Numbered from the stretch's first letter, positions 1 to 32,000 are shown. The stretch is DNA of 32,000 nucleotides from Candidatus Saccharimonadota bacterium (GCA_963706795.1 OY970170.1:630001-662000), one strand, 5' to 3'. The notes: generated by a model not told the origin, from the letters alone. Translations and numbers: made by a program.

Positions 1-2201
1 AAGTTTACACCGTTTTCGATTACGGTTGTTGTGAGAAGGATGTCATATTTTCCTTCTTTAAAATCCATGATGCGATCCTCGAGTTCTGTCGGATCGAGCT
101 GGCCATGAGTGATGACGATTTTGAGTTTTTTGCCCGCAATCCGCATGAGCTCCTTGGCAGTACCTTCGAGTGAAGCAATGCGATTATGCAAAAATATCAC
201 CTGACCACCACGATCGAGTTCGCCAGTGATAGCATCTCTCAGGACTTCTTCGCTCCATTTGGCAACGAGGGTGCGGATTGGTTTTTTGAGTGGGGGAGGT
301 GTTGTGATCATTGAGATCTTACGAAGCCCTGAGAGCGCCATATTGAGGCTTCGCGGGATCGGTGTTGCTGAGAGGGAGAGGATGTCGAGATGCGCCTTCA
401 TCGTGGTGATTCGCTCTTTGTCGATGACGCCAAATTTGTGTTCTTCGTCGACAATGAGGAGTCCGAGTCGCTTGCAGGTGATATCTTCGGAGAGGATACG
501 GTGGGTTCCAATAACTATGTCGATAGTGCCTTCTGCCAGACCGTGGATGATCTCTTTTGCCTCGCGGGCGCTCGTCATGCGCGAGAGCGTTGCGATGCGT
601 ATTCCTGTGCCATCAAATCTCTTTGCAAATGATTCAGCATGCTCATAGGCTAGTACAACTAATGGCGAAATTACCGCTACCTGCTTACCTCAGAGTACCG
701 CTTTGTAGGCAGCATTCATAGCAACTTCCGTCTTCCCAAATCCGACGTCACCCGAGAGAAGTCGATCCATGGGTTCGGAACTTTCCATATCGCCAAAGAT
801 TTCTTCGATCGAGCTGGTCTGATCGGCGGTGTGCTTGTAGGGGAATCGTGCCCTAAAATCTCATTCTTCCTTGCGGAATTTTGGGAAGGGATATCCCGTA
901 GAAACCTTGCGTCTTGCATAGACATCCAGAAGCTCGGCCGCAGTTTTTGCGATTTCGTCCTCGGTGTTCTGAAGTGCGGTTTTCCAGATTGTTCCGCCGA
1001 GTCTATGGAGATTTGGATGCTCATCTCCGAGGTATTTTGTCAGTCTATAGAGCTCAGTAACTGGCACGTAGAGTCGATCGTCATCAGCGTATTCAATCGC
1101 AACATATTCGCGTTTCACGCCATTCATTTCTTTTTCGATGAGTTCGCGAAATATTCCGATCCCGTGCTCAAAATGAACGACGTAGTCATTGGGTGCAAGC
1201 GATAACAAAAGGTCGAGTGACTTCGCGGCACTGCGTCTCGTGCGCTTTACCGCAAAGAGTCGAGAGAGAATATCATCCGCAATCGCAAAATGATCTGCCG
1301 ATCGAAAACTCTCGATCGCAAGACGTGGAATTGTTTCGATTCATTTATTTGCCAGACTGTTATATGACAAAAATTGCTCGATCGCTTTGGGATGACGAGT
1401 ATAAAACCGCGTCTTTTCACCAAATGCCCGCAGATGGTCTTCGAGAGCTTCGAGCGAATCAATCGTTAGTGGATCAATCTCAAGAGAAGTGCTCTCGCGC
1501 GTACTTTCAAAACAGAGATATCTTGTAAGTCCCGATCGCAAATCATTTGCCAGTGCAAAAAATTCGAGATCAAAAGTTACAACTAAAACATCATTTAACT
1601 CACTCGAGAGCTTCTGATCTATGGACTCTGCAAACTCCGGAAGAGGTTCAGAATTAGCCGCAAAAATGATACAACTCTCAGGTTTTTCTTTGGGTTCGCC
1701 GCCAAGTGTTCTCAAGATGATCTCATCGAGCTCATCTCCAAAAAACGAAGCAATCACGATCCGATCGCTTCTACGAATATGGAGCTCACCTCCATCGATT
1801 TTATAAGTAAAATCCTTGCTGAGATGAGGTCCGTGGCTGTATCCCATCTCAAGAAGTCGACTCACTATATCATCGAGTCGGTAGGTTTTCCCACGAATAA
1901 ACTCAAGTCCTCATTTTGTTCGTTTATATTCGTGCCGTACTCGTTCATCAAAAAATCCAGTGGTCGTACAATAGAGTCCGTTTTTCTCGACTAAAAAGGA
2001 CAAAAGATCTCATTCTGTACGAATATCCTTAATCGGCGTTGCCAAAAAATGCGCCAGAACTGCTGAAGCCTTGCGTGCATCCTCAAGATTTTCGAACACA
2101 AATAATGTCCGCCCTGCCGTAAGTGTCTCAAGGAGAAAAAGAGATCGGGAAAATGTGCTTCCCGATCTTGAATAGATGTGATTTTCGGCGAGTTTACGCA
2201 T
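1..2201 (-). CDS. mfd: Transcription-repair coupling factor Mfd. The C-terminus runs off the left edge of the window. It is re-stitched across 5 in-frame UGA(Gly) codons.
   Basis: ORF fragments 2010-2201, 1341-1865 and 861-1208 share one frame, as does the unlisted stretch 1-860. They are separated only by TGA, at 2010-2012, 1911-1913, 1341-1343, 861-863 and 690-692. The translation shows a UvrB-homology N-terminal region. It also shows the '[11 protein letters not shown]' CarD/TRCF-type segment, helicase motif I '[11 protein letters not shown]' and motif II '[11 protein letters not shown]'. Confidence 0.9.
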
Positions 2202-2207
2202 GGCTCA

Positions 2208-2765
2208 CTATATCTTCATAATTTCCACTTCCTTCTTATCAAACATAGCGTCGATCTTTTTTCCTTCGGCATCGATTGCCTTTTGGAGATCAGCTTCGTA
2301 GCCTTTGGCGATATCTTCGCTGATTTCTTTGGCAGTTTCAGCAGATTTAATCTTTTTAGCGTAGTCGCTGCGGATATTTCGGACTGCGATTTTGCCATCT
2401 TCGGCGAGTTTTTTGGCGATCTTTACGAGATCACGGCGGCGTTCTTCGGTGAGCGTTGGGATCTTGATCATGATGGATTCACCATTGTTTTGTGGATTGA
2501 GCCCGATATTTGCATCGGTAATCGCACGATCGATATCTTTAATAAGTGCTTTATCCCATGGTTGGATACTGATGGTTTGAGCGTCCATAATACTGACGCT
2601 GGCCACATTACGAAGTGGCTGAGCTGACCCGTAGGCACTGACCATAATACCTTCCACGATAGCTGGATTTGCGCGTCCTACCTGGAGCTTTGCAAACTCG
2701 TTATGAAGATGTTCTTCTGCTTTTAAAAGGTCGTTTGTTAAATTCGATAGCATAAGTAATGTCAA
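2208..2765 (-). CDS. frr: Ribosome recycling factor
   Basis: Intact 185 aa ORF. It reads as RRF over its full length (RANPAIVEGIMVSAYGS...IQPWDK...NPQNNGESIMIKIPTLTEERRRDLVK...RNIRSD). The true start may be the internal Met a few codons in. Confidence 0.95.
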   Translation of the reverse strand: MTLLMLSNLTNDLLKAEEHLHNEFAKLQVGRANPAIVEGIMVSAYGSAQPLRNVASVSIMDAQTISIQPWDKALIKDIDRAITDANIGLNPQNNGESIMIKIPTLTEERRRDLVKIAKKLAEDGKIAVRNIRSDYAKKIKSAETAKEISEDIAKGYEADLQKAIDAEGKKIDAMFDKKEVEIMKI

Positions 2766-2826
2766 AAACTAGGTGAGAATTATGGCGGGATTATAGACGC
2801 AATGCACTTTCTTTCCAAAATATTTT

Positions 2827-2854
2827 TTGACATACATTCGGACGAGACTATTAT
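2827..2854 (+). promoter_or_regulatory. Sigma70-like promoter for the 2888 gene
   Basis: TTGACA at 2827-2832, a 16 nt spacer, and TATTAT at 2849-2854, about 34 nt upstream of the ATG. Confidence 0.4.
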
Positions 2855-2887
2855 CCACAAGACGAATTTATTTTCTCTCTTCCCACC

Positions 2888-3625: not shown

Positions 3626-3651
3626 ATTGCGATCTTCACTTTCAGATTTTA

Positions 3652-3904: not shown

Positions 3905-6900
3905 ATGAAGTTATTCCAATCTTACGGTCTTATTCGTGCACTTTTCCAAGAGGCCGAATCTCGTGCGAGTGCACCATCCACTCCAACTACCACTCCTATT
4001 GAGACAGTAAAGTCTACGACAGTTCTCGCTGATGCTGCAAGAGATGCCAAAACAAAGGCGGATCTTCTTTCGGCGATTGCTAACTCTCATCTTCCAGATG
4101 ATCAAAAAGCATCACTTGCTGAGGAAATCAACAGCCAGGAAGAGTTTTCACTGCTCGTAAGTCGCGCAATGTCGGCGCTCCGATCCGGTATGTCCCGAGA
4201 TCAGGTTGCATCGATTTTTGTACAGAGTTCTGGCATTGATGAAGCCAAGGCTCGCAAGCTCGCCGTGAGTGTGGTCGCGGTCTATGAGGATTCTAAAAAA
4301 TCTCTTGGTACACTCTCAAACGTACACAAGACTCTTGCGAGCATTCGCCCAGCATTCGAAGGTCGTCTTCGTTTCAATGATGCACTCGATGTGCTTCTTA
4401 AAAATCCAGAACTCTTTGCGGGCTTTACAAAAAATGACACACGCATTGTATCAAACAATATGGATTCATTTGATGCAAACACTGGATCTCAGCGTCTTGA
4501 GGCTGCGCTTACATCAAGTAACTATTTTGGGCTAGCACAATGGGGTACTGGTGAAAACAACTATACACAGTCAGAACTCGCGGCCATCATCGAACTCCGT
4601 GATGCTATCAATAAGGATCCAAAGACATTTGCACTTCTTAAGAACGGTACAAATATCCAACGAACAGTCCGCATCGTCAAAACTGCAGATGCTATGGACG
4701 AAAAAACAAAGTCACAAAATCAGCTCGCGAAGCTCCTCGACTTTAGTAATGATGGACTTCTTACATCGACCAATCACAAAGAAAAAAGCAGCAATCTCAT
4801 TATTGCGACATTTCAGGGGATATTTGGTGGTGGAAAAGATGCTCAGCTCCATGTTGCGACAGAGCTCGCAATGTATCTCAATCTCAAGGACCGAGCAACG
4901 ACAGAAAAGGGTCTTGTAGATATCATCGCAAAGGTTACTGGTCACGGATCAGAGTATGTGGAGGCACGCCTCGATGATCCAAAGAAGTTCGCTCTTCTCG
5001 TAAAGGAATTCCAGTTTTCGTTCCTCAATCAGGTTGCTGATACTACGCCTCAGGTTGCGGCAAAACTCGATGAAAAAACTTCTCAGGAATATTCATCCGA
5101 AAAGATCAAAGAGCAGAATGCAGCGATGAAATTCATCACTAACGCGCTCAAAAAAGAAGAAATGCCTGCTCTCGTCAATGCTAAGCTCAAGGCTGCCGGT
5201 TATCCTGCACTTGAGGGCAAGACGATGGAAGAACTCCTCGAACGTACGGCTTTCCAGATTTCTCTTAATCCACGTTTCTACTCATCAGTCGGAGCAAAGA
5301 TGAGTGTGACCGAAAAGACGTACAACAAAGAGATCATCACTGAAAATGTAAAGCTCATCCACACAATCGAAATTACCAACGATATCACACACGATCCAGG
5401 TACAACTATCGAACACACAAAAACAATCGATACCAAGACGTTACTTGATCGCAATGTCGTGATTGATGGGAATACTGGTAAAGTCATCTCTGATACCACT
5501 GTGGATACTGGTAAAAAGAATGTCACCATTACCGAAGCAACAAAGACCGTCCAGACTCGTACGCCAAGTGATACTTGGAAGTTCACAAAGGTTGATAAAG
5601 GAACTCAGACCGTAGTTGGTAAGACCGAAGTCACTCGTGAATCTGAAACAAAACGCGCATCTAAGCTCATCCCACATATCGTGGTTGGATTTAATCTCGG
5701 TGCATTCCAGGTGGAAGGCAAGGGATATTCGGCTGATGCTGGTGTCGGGGTCTCTGCAGTAGCTGGAGCTGATGGGGTTGTATTCCCAATCTCAGTTTCT
5801 GGTCGCGCAGACGTGGGCGTAGTAAACCGAAATGAATTTCTCCAGACAAGTAATCTCAAGGGTAATTTCACCGTTGGTGGCGAACTTGGATTTACAAAGA
5901 CGGCTGGAAATTCGGTGGTTCCATCGCTCGGATTTAATATCAATCCAAATAACGCGATCGATACTATCAAAGAAAAGCGTGTCGAGATCAAGGAGCTCTG
6001 GCCACTTCTCGGACTTACCCCAGATGGAAAGCTCGATGATAGCAAGATCCAGGCCCGACTTGCTGATCTCATCAAGGAGGCAAACTCAAAAAATCCCGTA
6101 GATGAAGAAATTCTCATGCGAGTTTCTATCATGATGAAGATGCTCGATGGAACAAAGAAGGTTGTTGAAACAACGAACATGACTGACGAGCAAAAACTCC
6201 ATGTACTTCGTAAGACTGCGTCTTTTGAAAAGACATATATGGCTATGGTTCATCAGAACCTCAGCGGACTTCGTGTTGCGGGTGTGAATATCACGGTTAT
6301 CCCAATGATCCATGCGATCTTCTTGGGTCTCAATCTCCAATATGTGAGTCATTCTGCCTCAAAGGACAAGGGAGTTGATGCTACCGAGAGCAAGGTTTTG
6401 AGTAAGAAGCACGCTGATCTTGCAAATGCCGAAACAATCAAAAAGTATGTAACGAGCTTTGATAAAACAACCGGAAGTATCTTGGTTAATCGAGCGGATG
6501 TTGAGGCAGGTATCGTCGTAATTGGCGAATCTCTTCAATCAACTGCCGAAGGAAATAACATCCGCGTAACTCCTCCAGTTACGAGCAAGCTCCGCATTGA
6601 GAGTCAATATTTTGTTACCGGAGAAGGAATTGCCACAACCGGTATCTCAATCGGTGAGGAAAAGGGATTACCAGCTGTCGCAGCTGCTCCAAGCGCTCCC
6701 GTTGCTCCAACAGAAGCTGGTGGCGAATTTAAGAACAGCTATGACAAAGATCTCTTTGGTAAGCAGATTCGCGATGAGCTCTTTGCTCTCGCTCATGATT
6801 CACGCAATACTGCGTTTATCAAGGCACTCAATAGCCTCATGGGTCACAGTGACTATGCCGGAGCTGAGGATCTCATCCGCAAGGGTGGAAAGAAACTCAA

Positions 6901-8074
6901 ATTCCTCACGATTGCGCTCGACAATCCAGGTGCCGACAAAGAAGCCATCATCCGCAATGCGCTTCTCGTAACTTCTGGTGGACGCGAAACTCGTGGTAAA
7001 GAAATCACGTATTCGACTGCAAAGCGAGTACATGATCGCACAAAGAACGCATTTGTTCGTCAGTTGGGCGTAACTGAGGCAGATTATGATGTGTTCATAA
7101 AAGCATACAATAAGTATGATGATCTCCTCATGCGCAATGAAAAGAACGCTAGTGTTCAGGAAGGCGGTCTCAATAAGAACGAAAAAGTAAAATCAGCACC
7201 ACTCTCGCTCATTCTCGGTAACGAAAAAGCGAACTACCGTGAGATTTCAGGAGTTGTAAATTTTGCTCAGATCGATAATCGTACTCACAAACCAACAGTT
7301 CGTGGAACATTCCCATTTAATGGTGACATCAGTGTTATTGGTGGATCAGCCGAAGTTGGAAATGGAGTTATGAAGGGATACATCCTCGGACTCATCGAAA
7401 AGTCTGGTGATCTCCAAAAAAATCTCGACAAAGCCAACAAGGCTATCCCAGGAGCTCGCAAATTCTCTATGGATGAATACAAGAGCTTCCTTCTCGAGGG
7501 TACGCTTCCTACAGACCTTGCAAATGTTGTATCTGCTGAACCAAAGGCAAAGTTTATCACGACTCGTGCTATGCTCCCAGGATCTGAGTGTATCAATGAC
7601 ATCTACGCAATTGCCTTCCCAGTAGTAAAACCGCTCGCAGGTCGTGCAGAAGTTGCACCACCACTCGATCATTCTCCAATCATCATCGAAAAGGAACAAG
7701 GAAATACCTACACAAATCAGGATGGTGTTTCGAGTTTGACACTCGGTATTGATTACCGAAAGGCATTAGTACAGGAGGCTTTCAATGAGTCTGTGCGCAG
7801 AAAAAATATAACAACAGAAGAAAAGGTGGAAACAAGGACAACTAATAAGGATCTTCCGCCAGGAGAATCATTTAAGACAGTGACTACTGGAAATCCTGTC
7901 ATTACAACAACGACAACGACTACTCCGAAGACTCCAGACATTCCAGTGAAACCAGTTGACGATACTAAAACGCCATCCACAAAACCAGTAGAAACACCAA
8001 CGCTTCCAAATGTAAATGGTGGAACTAACAACAACGGTGGTAATCAGACAACAACAGTTACCGAAGGCTTCTAA
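3905..8074 (+). CDS. Giant orphan protein (1389 aa) with a central beta-rich region and a C-terminal Thr/Pro-rich tail
   Basis: One uninterrupted ORF, with an in-frame TAA at 3881-3883 just upstream. There is no obvious signal peptide. I recognise no family. The tail reads TTTTTTTPKTPDIPVKPVDDTKTPSTKPVETPTLP. Zero UGA codons in 1389 codons. Confidence 0.85.
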   Translation: MKLFQSYGLIRALFQEAESRASAPSTPTTTPIETVKSTTVLADAARDAKTKADLLSAIANSHLPDDQKASLAEEINSQEEFSLLVSRAMSALRSGMSRDQVASIFVQSSGIDEAKARKLAVSVVAVYEDSKKSLGTLSNVHKTLASIRPAFEGRLRFNDALDVLLKNPELFAGFTKNDTRIVSNNMDSFDANTGSQRLEAALTSSNYFGLAQWGTGENNYTQSELAAIIELRDAINKDPKTFALLKNGTNIQRTVRIVKTADAMDEKTKSQNQLAKLLDFSNDGLLTSTNHKEKSSNLIIATFQGIFGGGKDAQLHVATELAMYLNLKDRATTEKGLVDIIAKVTGHGSEYVEARLDDPKKFALLVKEFQFSFLNQVADTTPQVAAKLDEKTSQEYSSEKIKEQNAAMKFITNALKKEEMPALVNAKLKAAGYPALEGKTMEELLERTAFQISLNPRFYSSVGAKMSVTEKTYNKEIITENVKLIHTIEITNDITHDPGTTIEHTKTIDTKTLLDRNVVIDGNTGKVISDTTVDTGKKNVTITEATKTVQTRTPSDTWKFTKVDKGTQTVVGKTEVTRESETKRASKLIPHIVVGFNLGAFQVEGKGYSADAGVGVSAVAGADGVVFPISVSGRADVGVVNRNEFLQTSNLKGNFTVGGELGFTKTAGNSVVPSLGFNINPNNAIDTIKEKRVEIKELWPLLGLTPDGKLDDSKIQARLADLIKEANSKNPVDEEILMRVSIMMKMLDGTKKVVETTNMTDEQKLHVLRKTASFEKTYMAMVHQNLSGLRVAGVNITVIPMIHAIFLGLNLQYVSHSASKDKGVDATESKVLSKKHADLANAETIKKYVTSFDKTTGSILVNRADVEAGIVVIGESLQSTAEGNNIRVTPPVTSKLRIESQYFVTGEGIATTGISIGEEKGLPAVAAAPSAPVAPTEAGGEFKNSYDKDLFGKQIRDELFALAHDSRNTAFIKALNSLMGHSDYAGAEDLIRKGGKKLKFLTIALDNPGADKEAIIRNALLVTSGGRETRGKEITYSTAKRVHDRTKNAFVRQLGVTEADYDVFIKAYNKYDDLLMRNEKNASVQEGGLNKNEKVKSAPLSLILGNEKANYREISGVVNFAQIDNRTHKPTVRGTFPFNGDISVIGGSAEVGNGVMKGYILGLIEKSGDLQKNLDKANKAIPGARKFSMDEYKSFLLEGTLPTDLANVVSAEPKAKFITTRAMLPGSECINDIYAIAFPVVKPLAGRAEVAPPLDHSPIIIEKEQGNTYTNQDGVSSLTLGIDYRKALVQEAFNESVRRKNITTEEKVETRTTNKDLPPGESFKTVTTGNPVITTTTTTTPKTPDIPVKPVDDTKTPSTKPVETPTLPNVNGGTNNNGGNQTTTVTEGF

Positions 8075-8082
8075 TAATTCCC

Positions 8083-8310
8083 ATGAAAAATAACCGATAT
8101 ATTATTCCGGTGCTCTTGGCACTTGCGATTCTTGGGGTATGCATATACTTTGTTTCGATGAAGGGATCGAATAAAGGTACTGACACGATGGGCAAAACAA
8201 CCGAAAAGACACAGGGCGTCACTCAGACATGAGATACTCCTGCGAAAGGATGAGCGTCATCGTCGAGTGGAAACACTGCAGTATCCGGCCCCGAAGGCTT
8301 CCAACCATAA
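8083..8310 (+). CDS. Small single-pass membrane protein (75 aa under table 25)
   Basis: The ATG at 8083 lies 8 nt after the giant ORF's stop. The TM segment is IIPVLLALAILGVCIYFV. In-frame TGAs are at 8230-8232 and 8251-8253, and the TAA stop is at 8308-8310. Without recoding this ORF is invisible. Confidence 0.5.
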
Positions 8311-8319
8311 TTTTTTCGC

Positions 8320-11300: not shown

Positions 11301-11484
11301 TGGAAACATCAGTGCGAATATCGCTCCACTCGTCAACGACCGAACCTATATCCGAGCAACGCAGAATTCATCGGCACTCTCTACAGGTGTAACGATCAAC
11401 TACTCGACCCGAGCATTCAAGAATCCACCACCGCTCCTCTCGCAGTATCTTGATCAGTACAATCTCGCAAAAATCTCACGATAA
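8320..11484 (+). CDS. Giant secreted Cys-rich repeat protein (1054 aa), putative surface adhesin
   Basis: The track ORF 8539-11484 extends upstream through TGA 8428-8430 to an ATG at 8320. This exposes the signal peptide MKYTAYFVGFLLFLFPAFAFA. Two CG[DN]G..D...E.CD.G motifs occur, near 8773 and 10060. There are two 67 aa tandem Cys modules (8893-9093 and 9094-~9280). There are also two ~90 aa 'CGNGQ' modules (9478-~9750 and 9751-~10060), poly-Gly linkers, and a beta-helix-like C-terminal region. Confidence 0.85.
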
Positions 11485-13686: not shown

Positions 13687-13765
13687 GCGAGGGTAACATA
13701 AAAGAGTGAGTGTACTGAGGCTTCAACCCTCGGGTGTGCCGGTTCGAACCCGGTCCCTCGCTCCA
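13687..13765 (+). tRNA. tRNA-Gly(UCA), the UGA-decoding (recoding) tRNA
   Basis: The acceptor is GCGAGGG/CCCTCGC. The anticodon stem is TGAGG/CCTCG. The loop is C-T-TCA-A-C, with the anticodon at 13723-13725. The variable loop is 5 nt. The T arm is GCCGG-TTCGAAC-CCGGT. U73 and CCA are encoded. G1:C72, C2:G71, G3:C70 and U73 match bacterial tRNA-Gly identity elements. The D arm is atypical (a 20 nt D region with no clear GG), so a covariance-model check is needed. Confidence 0.8.
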
Positions 13766-13791: not shown

Positions 13792-13868
13792 GCGGATGTA
13801 GCTCAATTGGCTAGAGTACCGCCTTGCCATGGCGGCTGTTGTGGGTTCGAGTCCCATCATCCGCTCCA
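13792..13868 (+). tRNA. tRNA-Gly(GCC)
   Basis: Canonical cloverleaf: GCGGATG / GCTC-AATTGGCTA-GAGT / CCGCC-TTGCCAT-GGCGG / CTGTT / GTGGG-TTCGAGT-CCCAT / CATCCGC-T-CCA. The anticodon is at 13826-13828. Confidence 0.95.
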
Positions 13869-14752: not shown

Positions 14753-14830
14753 GCAGCCGTAGCTCAGTTGGATTAGAGCGCCTCCCTGCGAAGGAGGAGG
14801 TCACTGGTTCGAGCCCAGTCGGTTGCACCA
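14753..14830 (+). tRNA. tRNA-Arg(GCG)
   Basis: Cloverleaf: GCAGCCG / GCTC-AGTTGGATTA-GAGC / CCTCC-CTGCGAA-GGAGG / AGGTC / ACTGG-TTCGAGC-CCAGT / CGGTTGC-A-CCA. The anticodon is at 14788-14790. The 5' half closely resembles E. coli tRNA-Arg. Confidence 0.9.
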
Positions 14831-17408: not shown

Positions 17409-17410
17409 AA

Positions 17411-21389: not shown

Positions 21390-21983
21390 TTAAATGCTTG
21401 CACTCAGGACACTCTTCATCCCAAAGACTTTTTGAGGGAGATTTCCTATTTTTGGAAGTAGATTTTTGACTCGAGTTCAGACGATATAGCCGATTGAGAG
21501 TGGTGAGGCCCCAAACCAGCGCAGATAACTTTGTTCAGCGAGATGGAGATAGTCTTCGGCTCCGAGACGATTGTGGCGCTTCTCAAGCAAAAACCAATAT
21601 CCGTAGAGTGCAGCATCTCAGGCAGTTTTAAATTCTTGTTTTGCGAGATAATCGTGGACGTAGGGTTTTGCTACAATTTCTTGGCGCTCTTCTGGTAGCC
21701 CTCAGCATAAAAGCTGTGCAACGTATTCACATACATATTGAATCACGAGTGCATCCTCGACAAGCAACGAACCCTTCTTTGTGCTGAGCTCCTCACATGC
21801 TCGCAGAATCACAGCATCATAGACTTGAGCGTTATCCATGACGAGTATTTCGCCAGGTTGACTAGTCATCATATGCTGATGATTTTGATTTGCCGCATGC
21901 AATTGATGGGCAATCTGTATCATGGTTTTCTTTTCGCGAGCAGGCGATAATTTATTTTCAAGGAGGGACATAAACTGAATCAT
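21390..21983 (-). CDS. Hypothetical protein (197 aa under table 25)
   Basis: ORF 21702-21983 continues through TGAs at 21702, 21618 and 21477 to a TAA at 21390-21392. I recognise no confident family. Confidence 0.4.
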
Positions 21984-23045: not shown

Positions 23046-23720
23046 ATGCACGTCTTGCTTATCGAGGACAACATCCAGCTTGCGCAGACCGTCACACGAT
23101 ATCTCGCGAGCGAGGATATTGCCTGTACGCTCAGACTCGATGGTGCAGAGTGATATGCCGAAGCCGTAAATGGCAACTATGATGTCATCGTGCTCGATAT
23201 CGGGCTTCCGAGTATGGATGGTACGGCAATCTGTCGCAGACTTCGCGCCGAATGAAGCGCGGCACCCATTATTATGCTTACCTCTCGATCAACACGGGAT
23301 GATATCATCGAAGGACTCGATTATGGAGCGGATGATTATCTCGCAAAACCCTGTGATTACCGCGAGCTCGTGGCTCGTATCAGAGCACTTGGACGCCGTA
23401 ATAACACACAAAAAGGCACCGAAATCATCGATCTTGGTGATCTTAAAATCGATCTCCAAGATCACACGGTAGTATTCGAAGGCAAAAATATAGAGCTCTC
23501 TAAACGTGAATTTGAACTTCTACTCTATTTCGCACGAAATGCCGGAAACACTCTCACCAAACAGGATATCGCCGAAAAAGTCTGGTGAATCTATGATCTC
23601 TTCGCCGATCAAAAAGTTGTAGAAGTCTATATCGGATATCTTCGCAAAAAAATCCCAAACTGTATCACTACTAAAAAGGGCTATGGCTACAGTCTCGATG
23701 AGCGGTTTCTCAAGTCCTAA
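23046..23720 (+). CDS. OmpR/PhoB-family response regulator (224 aa)
   Basis: The receiver domain shows 'VLLIEDN' and 'DVIVLDIGLPSMDG', with 'IIMLTSR' and 'GADDYLAKP'. A winged-helix C-terminus shows 'LSKREFELLLYF' and 'VEVYIGYLRKKI'. In-frame TGAs are at 23151, 23253 and 23586. Confidence 0.9.
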
Positions 23721-23728: not shown

Positions 23729-24970
23729 ATGACAGCACATTCTCTTATTTCGACCGAACGTAAGCTCATACTCATTTTTGTGAGTGGTGCACTACTCTTT
23801 TTAGTGTCATTCGAGTGAATATTTCTCCTGACTCGCACACTTCAAGAAAATCAGCTTCAAAGGACGAATTTTGATCATGAGGCCAGCATGACGAATGATC
23901 GTCGAGGTGATAGCAATAGGCGCCCAGGTGCACCGTCATGAGATCGTCCTCCCCAAGCCCGTCAGGACAATAACAATGGCAGGCCGCCAGTAGATATTGG
24001 TTATATCGTAATTGATTCGAGTGGTGAACTCTTGCTCAGTCGACTCGGTGGAGCGTCGGATATTATCTCAACCGAAGACGTCCTAGATCGCAATATCTTG
24101 CTCGGACTTCCTATATGAGAGACGGTTTCAACTGGTGGATTCTTGCTTCGTAAAGTATCAAATACGACTGCACTTGGCGGCACCAAGATCTTTATTGGGA
24201 AGGGTGGATATTCATTTGATGACATGATCCGCGATATTTTGCGATTTGTAGCGATGGACGTACTGATTTTGATCCCGTTTTGGTTCGGGGCGCAGTATTT
24301 TATCCGCAGGACGCTCGAGCCAGTGACCAAAAATTTGGATGATATGACGCATTTTATTCATGATGCTGGACACGAACTCAAAACGCCGCTCGCAATTGTT
24401 TCCGGAAATATCCAATTTCTCCGTGATACCAAAAAACTCGATCCAGAAATCCTCGAAACCAGTCTCGCGACCGTGCATTCCATGGCCGAATCACTCGATG
24501 GACTGCTCGAACTCTCACAAATTCAGTGACTCGCAGACAAAGAAGACTGCCTACTCGCAGAAGTCGTTCAAGAAATCCTCACGCTTCATGCAACTAAGCT
24601 TGAGAGTAAAAAAATCACAACTATCGTAGAGATTGATCCACGTGCTGTGATCCAAATGAATCGAAAACACTTCCAGATTTTGTTTGCAAATCTCCTGCAA
24701 AATGCGATCAATTATAATATCCCAAATGGCAAAATCACGATCGCCTATGACAAAAAAATATTCTCAGTTCAAGATACGGGTATCGGTATCAAGCAGGAAA
24801 ATATCGACAAAATCTTCAATCGATTTTTCCGAGTAGATCGTAGTGGACAATACCCTGGAACAGGAATCGGTCTCGCCATTGTCGACCGCATCCTCAAGCT
24901 CTACAAATGGAATATCTCCGTCGAAAGTGAAGTCGGAAAAGGCACCAAATTTGCTATTAAAATGCGTTAA
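23729..24970 (+). CDS. Sensor histidine kinase (413 aa)
   Basis: There are two TM segments. The H-box is 'HDAGHELKTPLA'. The N box is 'LLQNAINYN', the G1 box is 'VQDTGIGI', and the G2 box is 'GTGIGLAIV'. In-frame TGAs are at 23816, 23939, 24116 and 24527. Confidence 0.9.
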
Positions 24971-24971
24971 A

Positions 24972-25007
24972 AAAATGATCTGTCCTATACGAAGGACAGA
25001 TCATTTT
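24972..25007. terminator. Bidirectional terminator shared by the convergent kinase and transglycosylase genes
   Basis: Stem AAAATGATCTGTCCT, loop ATACGA, stem AGGACAGATCATTTT. It overlaps the last codons of the minus-strand gene. Confidence 0.7.
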
Positions 25008-25899
25008 CGATTTTTTGGGCGAGCTCGAGTGCGAGGAGTTCGGGTTTTTGGGTGTCGCTTTGGACTACGGCTAACTGCACAGGCTTTGGAGCTTGAGCAC
25101 CGGTACTAATGAGTGATGCGTAGATATCACGATGTGTTACAGCTGGTGTGCTCGCAAGCTCTCGAGAAGTATTGCCATTGTAGTTTCGAAGAGAGATGTA
25201 TTCTTTCAGTTTTTCGGGATCTTGCAGCGTTTCTCGTAGCGACTGAGCTACGCTCTCAGGGGTTGAGCGAACACCGATATCTGAGAGTTTGCGAGAGATT
25301 CTTTTGAGGGTTTCTGGAGATTGGATGATCTGCGATATAGACGATTGGATGCGACTCGTTTTTTGGTTGCGGATCTGGTCATCGGCGCGGTCTTCGAGAA
25401 ATCGCATATATGTGCAGCCAATGACGAGATTGACGATAGGATTACCGCGCACAGAGCTGAGAGATCGGATAATACTCTCAAGTCCGGCAGGATTCGTGTG
25501 ATTGGGATTTTTTTTGGCCAAAAGAATTAAAGCCGTGAGTGCAGGCGGGGTCTCACGTGGGAATATCGTGTGATCTACCTTTGCCAAAATTGGTGCAAAT
25601 CGTGTGAAGCGACTCTGAATATCCTCAATCGGATGAGTATTGATTTGCATCAATCCCTGAGAAACTCCTGAATTGAGTTTTATAGAATATTTTGATTCAT
25701 GAGCAATGAGCGCGCTCATCTTTTGACGATCAAGACCGAGATCAGTACAAAGACTCGTGAGGATAAGTCCCTGATTTTCTTCGAAGGCTTCGCGATTTTT
25801 GGCGAGCTCACGGTGCCCTGGGAGATCAAAATTGGCAGACGCAGAAGTCTTTATGCTTTCTGCTTTTGGCGGGGGAGTAGTGGAGAATTTTTCGTTCAT
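24985..25899 (-). CDS. Lytic transglycosylase (SLT domain) protein
   Basis: Intact 304 aa ORF. It shows SLT family motifs: 'AHESKYS', which carries the catalytic Glu-Ser, together with 'GLMQIN' and 'YNGN'. Confidence 0.85.
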   Translation of the reverse strand: MNEKFSTTPPPKAESIKTSASANFDLPGHRELAKNREAFEENQGLILTSLCTDLGLDRQKMSALIAHESKYSIKLNSGVSQGLMQINTHPIEDIQSRFTRFAPILAKVDHTIFPRETPPALTALILLAKKNPNHTNPAGLESIIRSLSSVRGNPIVNLVIGCTYMRFLEDRADDQIRNQKTSRIQSSISQIIQSPETLKRISRKLSDIGVRSTPESVAQSLRETLQDPEKLKEYISLRNYNGNTSRELASTPAVTHRDIYASLISTGAQAPKPVQLAVVQSDTQKPELLALELAQKIENDLSFV

Positions 25900-25956: not shown

Positions 25957-26487
25957 CTATTTGGCCCATTCCTCAATCTTTTTTTGAACTTCAATAAAAA
26001 TAGATGTTTCGAGAGTATCGATTTCTGCTTTGGTGAGTTTGGAGAGCACCCAGTCACTGACTTCGTATCGAGGATCGCGATCAATACCAATTTTGAGACG
26101 AGAGAATTCCTCTGTGCCGATGGATTCGATGATGGATTTGATACCATTTTGACCGCCCGAGCTTCCTTTTTGGCGGAATCGAATCTTGCCAAAATCCATA
26201 TCGAGATCATCCGAGAGAACGATGAGATTGAGTGCGGGATCGAGTTTATAAAATCCGGCAATGGAGGCAATCGATCTGCCGGAGAGATTCATATAGGTGA
26301 CTGGCTTTATGAGCATTGTCTTCTCTCAGTTATGTACGCCCTCACTTATCACCGCGTGATGCTTGCTGGCCGAAAAATCTGGAAATCCCCACGCATTTCT
26401 CAAAAATTCGAGTGCGAGAGCTCCCATATTATGTCGGGTATTTGCGTATTCGGGTCCTGGATTGCCGAGTCAGACGATGCATTTCAT
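25957..26487 (-). CDS. pth: Peptidyl-tRNA hydrolase (176 aa)
   Basis: ORF 25957-26316 extends upstream through TGAs at 26326-26328 and 26470-26472 to an ATG at 26487. This restores the signature 'MKCIV(G)LGNPGPEYANTRHNMG'. Confidence 0.93.
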
Positions 26488-26518: not shown

Positions 26519-26546
26519 AAAAAAGTCTGCGATTAATTTCGCAGAC
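26519..26546 (-). terminator. Terminator of the ABC transporter operon
   Basis: On the minus strand: stem GTCTGCGA, loop AATTAA, stem TCGCAGAC, then T6. It overlaps the permease stop codon. Confidence 0.6.
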
Positions 26547-27306
26547 CTCGTCCTGTGGCAAAAAGCCAAGTACACCAAAGTGACATCAATATAAACATTC
26601 CTATGAGTACGCCGTAGCTCTGCCAGAGTGGCATATCCGAAAATCCTAGGAATCCATAACGGAATCCATTCACCATGTAGAGCACTGGATTAAAATGCGA
26701 AACTGCCTGCCAAAAAGGCGGAAGCAAGCTCACAGAATAAAATATTCCTCCAAGATATGTGAGTGGGGTGAGTACAAAGGTTGGCACGATTGAAACCGCA
26801 TCAAAATTCTTTGCGTACACTGCATTTACCAGACCCGCCATCGAAAAGAGTGCTGATGTCAAAAATACAAAGGCGATAATATGTATCACCGAAAAGAGCG
26901 AGAGATGCGTAAAGAACAGTGAAACAATGAGTACGAGCGCTCCAACGAGAAGACCGCGAAGCATTCCGCCAAGTACGTAGCCAGCAATAACTACTGATGC
27001 TGGAGTTGGTGAGACGAGGAGTTCCTCAAGATTTCGTTGGAATTTTGCTCCAAAAAATGAGCTTGAGACGTTAGCATATGCGCTCGTGAGCACACTCATC
27101 ATCACGAGTCCAGGGACAATAAATTGGATATATGATACGCCGTGTACCATCTGTATCTGACTCCCGAGGAAGGCCCCAAATACTATGAAATAGAGGCTCG
27201 TTGTGATCACAGGCGGGAGAAGAGTTTGCGGCCAAATGCGCAAAAATCTTCATACTTCTTTACGGATAATCGCGAGAAATGCGACATAGAGACCGGATGC
27301 ATTCAT
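26533..27306 (-). CDS. ABC-2 type transporter permease (257 aa)
   Basis: A multi-TM protein. The true N-terminus, '[18 protein letters not shown](G)RFLRIWPQT', is recovered through TGA 27250-27252. Its ATG overlaps the upstream stop (TAATG). Confidence 0.85.
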
Positions 27307-28217
27307 TATTTCGATGTAAGTTCGAGGAAATAGGCTTCGAGGCGATTGCTGGTATTGCGGAGACTTTCTACTGTGAGGCCGAGAGATTCGAGTCTGGTGA
27401 GAGCATCAATGATCTTATGCTCTTTGGTGACCGACAGTGTAATTGAACGATCTGTGAGTGTGGGATTGTAGGCCTTCAGAGCGCTGAGCTCGGCTTCGGT
27501 TGGGGCTCGTGGAATATCTACAGTGTAGTTCTCGGTTTTGAGATTGGAGAGTACTTCGCGCATCGTACCATTGGCAACGATATTTCCAGATCGGATGATT
27601 GCCACTTTGTTGCAGAGCATTTCTGCTTCTTCGAGATAGTGCGTAGTGAGGATGATCGTGACTCATTTTTTATTGAGCTCGATCAAAAATTTCCACATTT
27701 CTGCACGAATTTCGATATCGACACCGGCTGTTGGTTCGTCGAGGATGAGGATTTTTGGATCGTGTACGAGTGCACGGGCGATCATGAGTCGTCGCTTCAT
27801 TCCTCCAGAGAGTGCGCGTGCAGGAGTATTGAGTTTATCTCCGAGTCCGAGGGATTCGAGATACTGCTTAGCTTTTGGAAGCGCTTCATCGTAGGGGATT
27901 CCATAGTATCCAGCCTGGTTGACTACGATTTCGAGACACTTCTCAAAGATATTAAAATTAAACTCCTGCGGAACGACTCCGATAAAAGTTTTAGTAAGTG
28001 GACCTTCGAGTTCGGTATCATAGCCGAGCACCGAAACCTTACCAGCTGTCTTATTAACAAGGCCGGTAAGAATTCCAATAATGGTAGATTTACCAGCTCC
28101 ATTGGGTCCAAGAAGCGCGAAAAAATCACCGTTTTCGACGGTGAGATCGACTCATTTGAGCGCCTGTGTTCCTGAGTCGTAGGTCTTAGTAAGTCCTTGA
28201 AGTTCGATTGCGTGCAT
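27306..28217 (-). CDS. ABC transporter ATP-binding protein (303 aa)
   Basis: Walker A is 'GPNGAGKST', the signature is 'LSGGMKRRL', and Walker B is 'ILILDEPT'. In-frame TGAs are at 28152-28154 and 27663-27665. Its start overlaps the DUF1993 stop (TAATG). Confidence 0.9.
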
Positions 28218-28735: not shown

Positions 28736-28801
28736 ATTGGTTTGGCTAAAAAAACGACCAAGTATCGTAGCGCGCTTTGATAGTATGTCAATTCTGATTC
28801 T

Positions 28802-29602
28802 CTAAAGTGTTCCCTGTCCTACAAGCCATCTAAAGATCCATTCAGGCAAAAATCTTCTTAAAAAAATAAGCTGGAAACCGAGATATCCAGTCACATATCT
28901 CAGCTTTTGATTCTCCGAATTTGCAGCTGTAAAAATCGTCTTTGCAATCACTTTTGGATCACTTCCACCCGTGCTCGATTCGGTCATTTTTTTAAGCTTT
29001 GCAAATGCTGGTGCGAGACGAGGAATATTGATGGACCCCACTCGTAAATTGCGACTCACAAAATCCGTTCTTACAAATCCAGGTTCGACTATTTTGATAC
29101 GGATTCCGGTGCTTTTTATTTCGTGCCAAAGAGATTCAAGTGTGGCTTCGAGTGCATGCTTTGATCAGTTGTAATAACCATAAAACGGAAAAGCAATTTT
29201 TCCTCCGATGCTCGTCACAGTGACAATATGTCCCGATTTTTGCTTTAAAAATTTTGGAAGTAATCCACGAATAATCGCGATATTTCCAAAATAATTTACA
29301 TCAAACTGTGCTCTGATTTCCTCATCCGTTGCTCACTCAAAACTCGACATCAGTCCGTAGCCGGCATTATTAATGAGTGCGTCTATATGGATTTTTTTTC
29401 ACAGAATTTCTTCTGTAAATGTATGAATCGAATTCGTATCCGAGAGATTGAGTGCCTTCCAAACAAGATTTTGATGCGAAAAAGACGGCTTTTTTATGTC
29501 ACGCGCTGTTGCGATTACGTCGTAGTCCCGCGCCAAAAAATATTCTGCCGTTGCACGTCCGATACCCGAGGATGCTCCGGTGATGATGGCGAGTTTTTTC
29601 AT
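28802..29602 (-). CDS. Short-chain dehydrogenase/reductase (266 aa)
   Basis: The cofactor-binding motif is 'ITGASSGIGRA' and 'NNAG' is present. The catalytic segment is 'YN(G)SKHAL', a YxxxK motif. In-frame TGAs are at 29399, 29333 and 29165. Confidence 0.9.
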
Positions 29603-29603
29603 A

Positions 29604-29975
29604 TTAGGATTTTATGAAGTGATTGGCCATCAAATAAATAGTCGAAGCGATCAAAAAAACCGGCACAATCCAGTCCGTAAAATTTAAAAACCAAGTTGGC
29701 TTGTCGTACACATATTTAAAAAATATGACCTCAACAGTGAAGAGACTCACCATAAAGGCAATCATGGTTCCAAAACTTTCAAATCCATTTGTGCCACGAA
29801 TATAGCGAATATAGAGCCAACTCATGAGCACAAATGTCAGCACTGAAATACTGTAATGTACTACCACGAACCAGATTCGAGGCCATTTTTCTGCAATTGC
29901 AAAATATCCTCAGAGGACCAACCAACCCAAAAATGCGGTTGTGAAGATCTTGAGGATTTCGATGAATGAATTCAT
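29604..29975 (-). CDS. Small integral membrane protein (123 aa)
   Basis: The ATG is at 29975, and there is an in-frame TGA at 29910-29912. About four hydrophobic segments are present. I recognise no family. Confidence 0.6.
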
Positions 29976-29991
29976 GAGGCAGGGGATGATA

Positions 29992-30540
29992 TTATTCCGT
30001 TGCTGCTTGTTCGCCATTACCGACTATGACCTTTGCATGACGAATGACTTCATCATGGTGCTTGTAGCCCTTTTCAAACTCGACGATGATCTTGCCAGAA
30101 GGTCCGACTCATTGTGAGAGTGCTTCGTGGAAGTGTGGATCGAGATCGGATCCGACAGATTCGTATGATTTTACACCCATGCTTTCGAGGACTTTTGAGA
30201 GTCCAGCTGCTGCCTGCTTTACACCATCATAGACCGCTCCAGTTTGGAACTCTGCTGGAGTACCCGAAACCACACGATCGAGATTATCGAGCGTTGGAAG
30301 AAGTTTTTTTGCAAAGTTTTGAGTAAAAAAACTCGACATTTCGACGCGATCTTTTTCGGTGCGACGAAGGAGATTTTGATAGTCAGCATTCGCACGTGCG
30401 AGGCTTTCATTTGCCTTTGCGAGTTGTTCTTTGAGAAGTGAAACTCCATCATCTCCAGATTGAGTGGGAGTTTCTTCGGTGATTTCTGAGGTTTGATTTT
30501 CGAGATCTTCCATCTCGATTGCTGGATTTTGGTCAGTCAT
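29992..30540 (-). CDS. grpE: Nucleotide exchange factor GrpE (182 aa)
   Basis: It has an acidic N-terminus and a coiled coil ('YQNLLRRTEKDR'). 'LPTLDNLDR' and 'DPHFHEALSQ' are also present. ORF 30109-30540 continues through TGA 30109-30111 into the beta-sheet C-terminus ('...GYKHHDEVIRHAKVIV') and ends at a TAA at 29992-29994. Confidence 0.9.
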
Positions 30541-30542
30541 GA

Positions 30543-31034
30543 TTATTTAATTTTTTTCTTAAGATTCTTGTAAGTACTTTCGAATTCGCTATTGAGGTCC
30601 TTTGCTATTGAGCGAACCTTTTTAGTGAGTTTCTTTGCAATTTCTCCACCTTCTTCGAGTCCTTCTTCGGCGAGTTCGCTCGCTTCTTCGAGGAGCTCGT
30701 CGAGGATTTCTTTACGACGAGCGTAGAGATCTGTGAGAGCTTCTTCGATTTCTTCACGCTTGAGCTCTCATTTTTTTGTGAGGTCGGCAATCGTCTTTTC
30801 TGCCTCTACGCGGAATGCATCAATTTCTTTAAGAGCTTTGACTTTCATATGAGCAACGCGTTCACGATTTTCTGGGCTAAAGATTTTTTCTTCACCTTCG
30901 GTCCAGAGATTTTTGTGGATAGCTTTAATGTCTTCGGCGAGTTCGGGCAGAGTTTTTTTCTTACCGTCATCTGCGAATTTAACTGCCACAAGAAGTCCTG
31001 CGACATACCCGAGACCGAGCAAAAAGAGGTTTCA
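30543..31034 (-). CDS. Membrane-anchored acidic coiled-coil protein, YtxH-like (tentative)
   Basis: The N-terminal hydrophobic segment is 'LLLGLGYVAGLLVAV', followed by a Lys/Glu-rich helix. There is an in-frame TGA at 30768-30770. The start is uncertain: GTG at 31034 or TTG at 31022. The nearby ATG at 31042 is out of frame. Confidence 0.5.
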
Positions 31035-31118
31035 CTTTTTCATAGAGTGTAGGATGAGGGATAACGATATATCCTATGGTATCTCTCTCAAAAATCAAGG
31101 TTGTCTCGCTCGTCATGT

Positions 31119-31146
31119 AAAAAGCCGTCTGTTAACAGACGGCTTT
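31119..31146 (-). terminator. Rho-independent terminator of the MCP gene
   Basis: The perfect palindrome is AAAGCCGTCTG-TTAA-CAGACGGCTTT, followed by a T-run on the minus strand. Confidence 0.8.
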
Positions 31147-31157
31147 ATTTCCTCCTT

Positions 31158-32000
31158 TTAGGAATTGATTTGAAATACACTCATACTCTTGGTAAGTCCT
31201 TGAGCTTGTGAGGTAAGTGATGCGGTTGCAGCGGCTGCTTCTTCGACCAGAGCTGCGTTTTGTTGCGTGACAGTATCCATCTGACCAATCGCTTCGCTGA
31301 TACCAGTGATATCATTGCTTTGTCTGGCAGATGCTGTGCTAATAGACTCCACGATGGCAGTAACACTGGCGATCGCTTTTACGATATCCTGCATACTCTC
31401 ACCGGCTTCGTCCACTAATTTGCTGCCCTGATCAACAGTTCTCATCGACGAGCCAATGAGTTTTTTAATCTCAGCGGCAGCGGCAGCTGATCGTTGAGCA
31501 AGGGTTCGAACTTCGGTCGCGACGACAGCAAAACCACGACCTTGTTCTCCGGCACGTGCAGCTTCTACGGCTGCATTGAGGGCTAGAATATTTGTTTGAA
31601 AGGCGATGCTATCGATAGTGCTGGTAATATCGCCAATCTTTTTGGAGCTTTCTTTGATTAATCCCATAGTTTCAATTACGGAATCAACCACCCTTCCCCC
31701 TTCAACAGCCATATTGGATGCCTGGATGGCGAGCGTGTTTGCTTGCTCGGCATTTTCGGCATTCTTTTTGACGCTGCTCGTGAGAGTTTCCATAGACGCA
31801 GCTGTTTCTTGGAGAGACGAAGCTTGCTCTTCGGTGCGGCTTGAGAGATCAAGATTTCCGTTGGCAATTTCGCTTGCTCCGATAGCAACTGTATTTACAG
31901 ACTGTCGCACTTCTCCCACGGTGTGTGCGAGATTTTCAGACATGTGAGCCACGGCTTCCATAAGTTTGCCGATTTCGTCACGGGTTGTGGCAGTTATTTT
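31158..32000 (-). CDS. Methyl-accepting chemotaxis protein. Only the C-terminal signalling domain is present, and the N-terminus lies beyond the right edge.
   Basis: It carries the highly conserved MCP hairpin core '[41 protein letters not shown]'. Methylation-helix heptads are present. The frame stays open to position 32000 and reads '..TRDEIGKL', the end of a HAMP domain. Confidence 0.9.

Follow-up and report, generated by a model that had tools for sequence, protein, structure and literature searches.

The window, i.e. the whole 32-kb stretch of DNA that was analysed, has a GC content of 0.44 and carries 23 protein genes in our gene model, of which 22 are complete; a conserved 112-aa ORF, taken as an extra gene, brings the number to 24. 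The tRNA genes and the protein genes discussed below are listed with their strand and in-frame TGA codons.

3-2201, minus strand: Mfd (transcription-repair coupling factor), truncated at the window edge; five TGAs; Pfam CarD_TRCF_RID, DEAD, Helicase_C and UvrB_inter
2208-2753, minus strand: ribosome recycling factor (RRF); no TGA; Pfam RRF; the identical protein is encoded on a 1,267,896-bp NCBI/ENA contig and on a Logan contig
8320-11484, plus strand: 1054-aa secreted protein, family not recognised; one TGA (codon 37) in the stretch that links signal peptide and body
11875-13554, minus strand: Elp3-like radical-SAM/GNAT protein; two TGAs (codons 407 and 508); Pfam; PDB Elp3, E = 1e-98
13687-13765, plus strand: tRNA with anticodon UCA, putative tRNA-Gly(UCA) and UGA decoder; ARAGORN, Rfam; 76 nt plus encoded CCA
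13792-13868, plus strand: tRNA-Gly(GCC); ARAGORN, Rfam; 26 nt downstream of tRNA(UCA)
14753-14830, plus strand: tRNA-Arg(GCG); ARAGORN, Rfam; directly adjoins the restriction-modification insertion
14892-17408, minus strand: type III restriction subunit Res; 15 TGAs; GC 0.38; Pfam ResIII
17411-19105, minus strand: type III methyltransferase Mod; 13 TGAs; GC 0.355; Pfam N6_N4_Mtase; EcoP15I Mod match, E = 8.5e-81
19316-21154, minus strand: S8 subtilase with SLH domain; nine TGAs, spanned by Pfam Peptidase_S8
21390-21983, minus strand: hypothetical 197-aa protein; three TGAs; no Pfam match
23046-23720, plus strand: OmpR-type response regulator; three TGAs; Pfam, PDB
23729-24970, plus strand: histidine kinase; four TGAs; Pfam HisKA and HATPase_c
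25957-26487, minus strand: peptidyl-tRNA hydrolase (Pth); two TGAs (codons 6 and 54); Pfam, E = 5.6e-55
26533-27306, minus strand: ABC-2 permease; one TGA; Pfam
27306-28217, minus strand: ABC ATPase; two TGAs; Pfam
28802-29602, minus strand: short-chain dehydrogenase (SDR); three TGAs, one within the Y-x-x-x-K motif; Pfam
29604-30017, minus strand: hypothetical 137-aa membrane protein; one TGA
29992-30540, minus strand: GrpE; one TGA, spanned by Pfam GrpE (profile positions 6-164 of 165)
30543-31043, minus strand: hypothetical 166-aa protein; two TGAs

The original prediction held that the whole window is written in genetic code 25, with UGA read as glycine, and proposed that the genes be re-called accordingly. 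With TGA as a sense codon, 19 ORFs in the window reached 300 aa or more, compared with four under table 11; the control readings with TAA or TAG as sense gave six each. ORFs of at least 150 aa filled 0.60 of the window when the standard code was applied; this rose to 0.99 once TGA was translated, but only to 0.72 when TAA was translated instead. We counted 67 in-frame TGAs in the gene model, slightly below the original count of about 70, spread over 16 of the 23 genes; if an upstream ATG is taken as the start of the first giant ORF, the TGA-bearing genes number 17. That genes are split by TGA was thus correct, while the counts given for it (at least 18 of about 28) were too high, the actual figure being 16-17 of 23-24. 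All of the named homologs were found by Pfam, namely Mfd, the Elp3-type radical SAM protein, Res, Mod, the S8 peptidase, the OmpR-type regulator, the histidine kinase, Pth, the ABC ATPase, the ABC-2 permease, the SDR and GrpE. The Pfam domain matches and PDB alignments continue across the TGAs, as in Mfd, where PDB matches (E = 1e-114) cross two of them. Standard-code calls on the same sequence chop Mfd into pieces of 63, 168, 88 and 453 aa, and the entry for the source contig's Mfd in a public protein collection is the 453-aa fragment; a standard-code annotation is wrong here, as anticipated. The 1054-aa secreted protein is shortened to 981 aa in the standard-code call, which begins only after the TGA.

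Over the 9,460 codons of the gene model, no in-frame TAA or TAG was found and no gene needed a frameshift to keep one frame, as had been claimed for the re-stitched genes. The 22 complete genes stop at TAA (16) or TAG (6), a result that is partly a consequence of the ORF definition used. The Pfam domain ends lie close to these stops, and the TGAs are distributed evenly along the gene lengths. None of the window TGAs falls at the C-terminus of a homolog; many TGAs at such ends had been named as a pattern that would speak against the recoding.

The tRNA gene with anticodon UCA adopts a cloverleaf architecture with a 7-bp acceptor stem and a 4-nt variable loop. Among Rfam families it scores highest with RF00005 (tRNA, 44.9 bits) and not with tRNA-Sec; the SeC label given by ARAGORN derives purely from the anticodon. 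The glycine identity set of G1:C72, C2:G71, G3:C70 and U73 is invariant across 18 sequences, and the first three acceptor pairs as well as the discriminator U73 are common to tRNA(UCA) and the adjacent tRNA-Gly(GCC). The gene is kept beside Elp3 in 17 relatives, and compensatory changes occur at three of its pairs among the 11 distinct sequences that were folded. Shulgina & Eddy (2021, PMC8629427) used a glycine-identity rule for classifying tRNA(UCA) genes, and the same rule was applied here. Because tRNA(UCA) carries the bacterial glycine identity set, it would be charged with glycine by glycyl-tRNA synthetase.

The residues facing the TGAs were examined in family alignments, of which those of Res and Mod comprised 120 full-length homologs each, mostly from standard-code organisms. 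The expected enrichment for Gly was observed: the log-likelihood ratio at the Res/Mod TGA columns was +40.8 for Gly, -24.0 for Ser as the next best residue and -27.3 for Trp. The mean Gly frequency was 0.43 at TGA columns, 0.64 at GGN columns, 0.02 at columns of other codons and 0.01 at TGG columns. Gly ranked first in 14 of 27 TGA columns, compared with 24 of 1268 other-codon columns, and Trp ranked first in no TGA column of Res or Mod. Four Res columns had Gly in 118/120, 116/120, 118/120 and 89/120 homologs, and in Mod Gly was more frequent than any other residue in 8 of 13 TGA columns, with 112/120 at codon 45. Nine homologs in these statistics come from recoded organisms and bear W instead of G, so they work against the Gly signal, not for it. 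All other sense codons seen more than once in the Res/Mod test had their standard reading, CGA included.

In the best solved homolog of each protein, the 33 aligned TGA sites faced G ten times and A seven times (binomial P = 1e-4 for G). Both Pth TGAs face G in 4/4 solved structures, Elp3 codon 508 in 3/3, and ABC ATPase codon 185 is also opposite G in PDB structures. Five TGAs had originally been placed on invariant glycines. Those in the Pth motif IVGLGNPG, the Elp3 motif QxxGxG and the Mod motif (G)DNL stand; the subtilisin AAGN(G) position is occupied by N/E/E/A in solved subtilases, with the conserved Gly one residue later, and the receiver DGAE(G) position by A/A/G in solved regulators. 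Opposite the S8 subtilase TGAs, PDB structures have small or variable residues (A, A, N, D, R) and no W, and SDR codon 146 is opposite A/G/A. All five Mfd TGAs lie at variable columns. We must also note that about half of the TGA sites overall are variable columns, which are uninformative on the amino acid.

TGA and GGN interchange among orthologs within the clade. In 81 Elp3 orthologs, codon 508 was aligned with 68 G and 12 TGA and codon 407 with 39 G and 35 TGA; 792 of the 961 TGAs in these orthologs fall in columns most often occupied by Gly, and no TGA falls in a Trp column. The codons facing 54 window TGAs in close orthologs were TGA (28), GGN (12), other sense codons (12) and gaps (2), an excess of GGN with P = 4e-8. 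In the closest relative (L002), the S8 subtilase TGAs are matched by eight TGA and one GGA, those of the OmpR-type regulator by GGG, TGA and GGG, those of the histidine kinase by GGT, a gap, TGA and AAG, and those of Pth by TGA and GGC; the ABC-2 permease TGA corresponds to GGG and ABC ATPase codon 185 to GGC.

The reading of TGA as Gly is thus supported by four independent lines of sequence evidence: the identity of tRNA(UCA), the Gly-enriched columns, the TGA/GGN interchange and the rejection of Trp. The last of these bears on genetic code 4, in which UGA encodes tryptophan, as in Mycoplasmatales, some insect endosymbionts and some Eggerthellaceae. This is the more widespread bacterial reassignment of UGA (PMC8629427), and W does occur at TGA columns in a few database homologs. 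However, W is borne by the nearest relatives among the homologs (51-87% identity). Their Trp content is raised (2.6-5.2% vs 1.2-1.6%) and their Gly content lowered, in keeping with recoded genes that were wrongly translated with table 4. Besides the strongly negative Trp ratio, W was found at 0/33 aligned sites in solved homologs, TGG was never opposite a window TGA in the orthologs, and U73 with G1:C72 in tRNA(UCA) differs from the G73 of tRNA-Trp; we regard code 4 as very improbable. Selenocysteine insertion or programmed read-through at UGA, for which the ARAGORN label could be quoted, would have to account for 67 sites over 16 unrelated proteins, none in a known selenoprotein family. The tRNA, with its 76 nt, short variable loop and 7-bp acceptor stem, scores best as an ordinary tRNA, and the aligned columns hold Gly and not Cys/Sec, so that we give this explanation practically no weight.

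Many genes are broken under the standard code, as would be the case if the TGAs really ended translation early, the genome being in decay or poorly assembled. Yet the interruptions are exclusively TGA, 28 of 54 TGA positions are shared with independent assemblies of relatives, and a cognate tRNA(UCA) is present. Moreover, in an independent Logan assembly (run ERR12037365) the RRF is identical and Mfd is fragmented in the same way; pseudogenisation or sequencing error is extremely unlikely. Incomplete reassignment or context-dependent termination, where UGA is mostly glycine and yet ends some genes, is compatible with the low usage of the codon: UGA accounts for 67 of 709 Gly codons (9.4%), several genes have none, and two giant ORFs contain 227 GGN codons between them but only one TGA. 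Low-level ambiguous decoding was also seen in a relative by proteomics (PMC4032931). Nevertheless, 22/22 complete genes reach TAA or TAG with Pfam domains ending nearby, no TGA coincides with a homolog's C-terminus, and Res continues for 30 codons past its last TGA, where homologs are full length. We therefore consider such dual use unlikely to a high degree.

The window is almost certainly chromosomal DNA of a bacterium of the Gracilibacteria lineage (CPR/Patescibacteria) that uses NCBI genetic code 25, with UGA read by tRNA(UCA). UGA would serve as an ordinary glycine codon, decoded by the dedicated tRNA encoded within the window at 13687-13765, and termination would be left to UAA and UAG only. 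Release factor 2 is probably absent, as established knowledge would suggest; no prfB was found within the 32-kb window (the genome is 1.27 Mb). The predicted position in the Gracilibacteria or Absconditabacteria is supported by the nearest Elp3 and Mfd matches, in a similarity ranking and not a phylogeny: the best 80 Elp3 loci among GTDB species genomes were nearly all from Candidatus Gracilibacteria or Patescibacteria MAGs, with 83% identity at the top, and the top named Mfd matches were labelled Gracilibacteria.

NCBI translation table 25, the Candidate Division SR1 and Gracilibacteria code, reportedly goes back to Campbell et al. and Rinke et al. (both 2013). The window agrees with it in UGA = Gly, in UAA and UAG as the only stops and in a tRNA(UCA) with the glycine set, and it differs in nothing of kind. 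Its clade (Gracilibacteria/BD1-5) is the same, and the GC content lies within the reported 0.21-0.53 (PMC8629427). Within this clade, proteomics has demonstrated glycine at UGA (Hanke et al. 2014, PMC4032931), with 97 Gly-specific vs 3 Trp-specific peptides in a relative, and a computational screen arrived at the same assignment (PMC8629427). The lineage of the window uses UGA sparingly (0.7% of codons), whereas low-GC relatives have up to 32 TGAs in Elp3 alone. Code 25 is found here in its expected clade, as a known code with a further member.

The extended code of Absconditabacteria (SR1), with UGA = Gly and CGA/CGG = Trp (Shulgina & Eddy 2021, PMC8629427), has the glycine assignment in common with the window, which also has tRNA-Arg(GCG) in place of tRNA-Arg(ACG), a general trait of CPR bacteria (PMC8629427). 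In contrast, CGA is abundant in the window (98 codons) and is read as Arg from 12 Res/Mod columns, and for CGG (15 codons) the test covered the four in Elp3, of which 3/4 face a conserved Arg in solved Elp3 structures, a small sample. On these alignments CGA and CGG appear to remain Arg, with no reassignment of arginine codons, which argues against an extended code of the Absconditabacteria type. Table 4 (Mycoplasma/Spiroplasma) likewise removes UGA from termination and fragments standard-code gene calls, but the amino acid here is Gly and tRNA(UCA) has a glycine-type acceptor stem. Selenocysteine recoding also employs a tRNA with anticodon UCA; unlike it, the decoding in the window appears genome-wide and context-independent.

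The Res/Mod pair (14892-19105) forms a 4.3-kb insertion adjoining tRNA-Arg that the closest relative lacks. Of the 67 window TGAs, 28 are in this pair, where roughly one Gly codon in three is TGA, compared with ~6% in the other 21 genes, and the GC content of the pair is 0.36-0.38 vs 0.45 in the flanks. The window Res is 94.5% identical to that of a Gracilibacterium with GC 0.37, whose Elp3 is only 61% identical. There is an even chance, in our judgement, that the pair was acquired by recent gene transfer between code-25 organisms, with TGA density as a fingerprint of the donor and the code as a filter. If so, TGA density would mark the donor of the Res/Mod pair, and the altered code would filter transfer, with defence genes flowing freely within the recoded clade and being unreadable outside it.

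UGA is a sense codon in the window, and only TAA and TAG were seen as stops. With a GC content of 43.7%, the whole window contained four ORFs of at least 300 aa under table 11 versus 19 with TGA as sense, in line with the original prediction of genetic code 25. The controls with TAA or TAG as sense each gave six. Coverage of the window by ORFs of at least 150 aa rose from 0.60 with the standard code to 0.99 once TGA was made sense; it was 0.72 in the TAA-sense control. Our gene model, built from TAA/TAG-delimited frames, Pfam matches and start codons, comprised 23 protein genes (24 if a conserved 112-aa ORF, found later, is added), with 67 in-frame TGAs in 16 of them. The predicted figures, at least 18 of about 28 genes and about 70 TGAs, were essentially right but slightly high. 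No in-frame TAA or TAG occurred in the 9,460 codons of the model, and none of its genes required a frameshift to keep a single frame, as had been claimed beforehand. The 22 complete genes ended in TAA (16) or TAG (6). TGA counts per gene decile (9, 4, 4, 9, 7, 9, 8, 6, 7 and 4) were evenly spread, and therefore showed no C-terminal clustering. Pfam domain matches continued through the TGAs in the re-stitched genes, and every family named in advance was matched: Mfd, Elp3-type radical-SAM, ResIII, N6_N4_Mtase, Peptidase_S8, OmpR-type regulator, histidine kinase, Pth, ABC ATPase, ABC-2 permease, SDR and GrpE.

The window also holds the following reading frames:
3905-8074: giant ORF of 1389 aa
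8320-11484: giant ORF of 1054 aa, with a signal peptide
14357-14695, plus strand: very basic 112-aa ORF without TGA, immediately upstream of tRNA-Arg
24985-25899, minus strand: hypothetical protein of 304 aa without TGA, between histidine kinase and Pth
31158-32000, minus strand: C-terminal 280 aa (MCPsignal and HAMP) of a methyl-accepting chemotaxis protein, without TGA, cut by the window end

Neither giant ORF matched a Pfam family, except for a weak PKD match. Between them they have 227 GGN codons but a single TGA, well below the window average, and they are fast-evolving, with 45% and 63% identity to the closest relative (L002) versus 80-89% for neighbouring genes. The Pfam search with the 112-aa ORF gave no match; its protein is conserved in at least six relatives, with 90% identity to L002 and ~83% to the L003 and L004 loci. 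The 304-aa protein had no Pfam match, and no ortholog of it was found in L002, where the equivalent gap is only ~660 bp. The chemotaxis protein gene has the highest GC (0.48) of all model genes.

The statistical meaning of UGA in the window is glycine. The family-column set covered Res (15 TGAs) and Mod (13 TGAs), the type III restriction subunit and methyltransferase, with 120 full-length homologs each at 40-87% identity. The few named homologs include Flavobacteriia, Bacteroidales, Mucilaginibacter, Thiobacillus and standard-code CPR lineages. Gly was present in 118, 116, 118 and 89 of 120 homologs in four Res TGA columns, and in 112, 98 and 84 of 120, as well as 75 of 75 ungapped, in four Mod columns. 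In a Codetta-style test on the 27 usable columns, the log-likelihood for TGA was +40.8 for Gly, -24.0 for Ser and -27.3 for Trp, which bears out the Gly enrichment implied by the prediction. All remaining codons with more than one observation were assigned their standard meaning.

Glycine in Res and Mod alignment columns, by window codon
TGA columns: mean Gly frequency 0.43; Gly commonest in 14/27
GGN columns: mean Gly frequency 0.64; Gly commonest in 41/57
TGG columns: mean Gly frequency 0.01; Gly commonest in 0/19
Columns of all other codons: mean Gly frequency 0.02; Gly commonest in 24/1268

In an Mfd alignment with 84 mostly standard-code homologs, all five TGAs lay in variable or poorly aligned columns, with a log-likelihood ratio of ~0; nearly all other codons took their standard meaning.

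The TGA sites were also compared with solved structures of homologs, mostly of standard-code organisms. Gly stood opposite both Pth TGAs in four of four structures, opposite the TGAs of the Elp3 GNAT motif QHM(X)FG and of LIE(X)DNL in Mod in three of three each, opposite codon 185 of the ABC ATPase, and, in two of three structures, opposite codon 181 of the response regulator. With the best structure per site, the 33 aligned TGAs faced Gly ten times, Ala seven times and Trp never, a Gly excess with binomial P = 1e-4 (Gly background 7.5%). The EcoP15I Res structure aligned over only ~150 residues, with three TGAs facing D, A and K. Five TGAs had been proposed to fall on invariant glycines; the structures uphold those in Pth, Elp3 and Mod, but not the other two. 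At AAGN(X) of the subtilase, solved enzymes show N, E, E and A opposite the TGA and the conserved Gly follows one residue later, whereas at DGAE(X) of the receiver domain solved regulators have A, A and G.

Raw codons in relatives provided a comparison independent of any translation table. An Elp3 scan of GTDB species genomes gave 80 loci and a codon alignment of 81 sequences, 80 of which lacked TAA and TAG. TGA was present in 96 columns, in which the pooled non-TGA codons encoded Gly 1,931 times and Trp four times. Gly was the commonest residue in the columns of 792 of the 961 TGA occurrences and made up at least 90% of the column for 513; no TGA fell in a Trp column. The number of TGAs per Elp3 locus ranged from 0 to 32 and rose with falling GC, from 0-3 at GC above 0.45 to 20-32 near 0.25; the gain in ORF coverage on making TGA sense was also seen in most relatives. 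Opposite the window TGAs, the closest orthologs, taken from L002 generally and from L038 (a Gracilibacterium with GC 0.37) for the restriction-modification (R-M) genes, had 28 TGAs, 12 GGN codons, 12 other sense codons, two gaps and no TGG; the P value for the GGN excess was 4e-8. In the reverse case, with TGA in the relative and not in the window, the window had GGN at 15 of 30 aligned sites. Under the standard code, the high-GC loci L071 (GC 0.60), L072 and L059 look nearly uninterrupted, and some of them are labelled Peribacteria. The S8 protease ortholog in L002 (6188-8095), recovered by nucleotide comparison, lies in two overlapping frames with a frameshift near 7222-7415, which could reflect either an error in the MAG assembly or a genuine disruption.

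ARAGORN located the following tRNA genes:
13687-13765: tRNA with anticodon UCA, the putative UGA decoder
26 nt downstream of tRNA(UCA): tRNA-Gly(GCC)
beyond tRNA-Gly(GCC): tRNA-Arg(GCG)

The 'SeC' label of tRNA(UCA) is merely the ARAGORN name for that anticodon. Without its CCA, the tRNA measures 76 nt. It folds into an ordinary cloverleaf whose acceptor stem has 7 bp and whose variable loop has 4 nt, and its best Rfam family within the tRNA clan is RF00005 (44.9 bits). It carries G1:C72, C2:G71, G3:C70 and discriminator U73, matching the adjacent tRNA-Gly(GCC) exactly. The same identity rule served Shulgina and Eddy to classify tRNA(UCA) genes as glycine acceptors (PMC8629427). The gene adjoins Elp3 in 17 relatives; differences among the 18 sequences are few, and their consensus cloverleaf has compensatory changes in three pairs. 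The D-arm (13696-13713) has an unusual A-rich D-loop of 10 nt (AAAAGAGUGA), in which the usual GG is absent. Moreover, an extra nucleotide precedes the anticodon stem (13715-13733), so that the stem is able to form six pairs. All 18 sequences share both features; the sole exceptions are two single-base variants within the D-loop of a few relatives. From established knowledge, GlyRS would charge tRNA(UCA) through the identity set of its acceptor stem and discriminator, and RF2 would have been lost.

We rejected code 4, in which UGA encodes Trp. The negative Trp score in the column test, the absence of TGG opposite window TGAs and of W at the 33 structural sites all oppose it, as does the discriminator U73 of tRNA(UCA), since the discriminator of bacterial tRNA-Trp is G73. 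W does occur at the window's TGA sites, at up to 13 of 15, in the database proteins most closely related to Mod and Res (P0124-P0128, P0153, P0156, P0244 and P0245). Their Trp content is 2.6-5.2% versus 1.2-1.6% in other homologs, and Gly is depleted; it appears that table 4 was used to translate code-25 genes.

We also rejected pseudogenes and sequence errors, because TGA alone interrupts the genes, independent assemblies share its positions, and the window encodes a cognate tRNA. Selenocysteine decoding was rejected as well, on the ordinary architecture of tRNA(UCA), on how many and how varied the sites are, and on the residues aligned with TGA. Residual dual use, with UGA still a stop in some genes, is very improbable; no gene within the 32 kb suggests it. 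Alignment columns, ortholog codons and tRNA(UCA) agree on glycine, and the original prediction was correct: the window is a case of NCBI code 25 in its expected clade, of a kind already known. NCBI has listed the reading of UGA as Gly in Gracilibacteria and SR1 as table 25 since 2013. Proteomics of a BD1-5 relative confirmed it in 2014, with 97 Gly-specific peptides versus three Trp-specific ones (PMC4032931).

By exact look-up, the window's TGA-free proteins were located on an NCBI/ENA contig of 1,267,896 bp and on a 13-kb Logan assembly of run ERR12037365. The best Elp3 locus was from a Patescibacteria MAG (83% identity), and almost all others were labelled Candidatus Gracilibacteria, 'Peribacteria' or Patescibacteria; the top named Mfd matches were Candidatus Gracilibacteria. 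A reassignment of CGA/CGG to Trp has been described for Absconditabacteria and some Gracilibacteria (PMC8629427). We tested for it and did not find it. Unlike in the extended code of Absconditabacteria, CGA is abundant in the window (98 codons) and was read as Arg by the column test, and three of four Elp3 CGG codons face a conserved Arg in solved structures.

The Res and Mod pair (14892-19105) forms an insertion of 4.3 kb; the two features on either side of it, tRNA-Arg and the S8 protease gene, are adjacent in L002 (8110-8404). Its GC is 0.36-0.38 versus ~0.45 in the flanks, and it carries 28 of the 67 window TGAs. Res shares 94.5% identity with an ORF of L038, in which the region compared with the pair is 4491-8828; the Elp3 of L038 shares only 61% with that of the window. 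The pair looks like a recent transfer within the recoded clade.

The expectation that standard-code annotation would be wrong held in public data. On the Logan contig, standard-code calls cut Mfd into pieces of 63, 168, 88 and 453 aa, and the call for the 1054-aa secreted protein begins after its TGA, losing the signal peptide. In the protein collection, the Mfd entry from a 1.27-Mb contig of the same genome is the 453-aa fragment; exact look-ups of full-length Pth, response regulator and GrpE, as Gly or Trp translations, found none in the collection searched. For the choice of table, tRNA(UCA) with its glycine identity set next to tRNA-Gly(GCC) is a compact window-level marker. The biology of UGA as Gly is already established, and the value of the result is practical, for annotation. 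In public data, roughly two in three genes of such organisms are truncated or mistranslated, and these proteins distort homology searching as well as the protein families and metabolic reconstructions of the clade.
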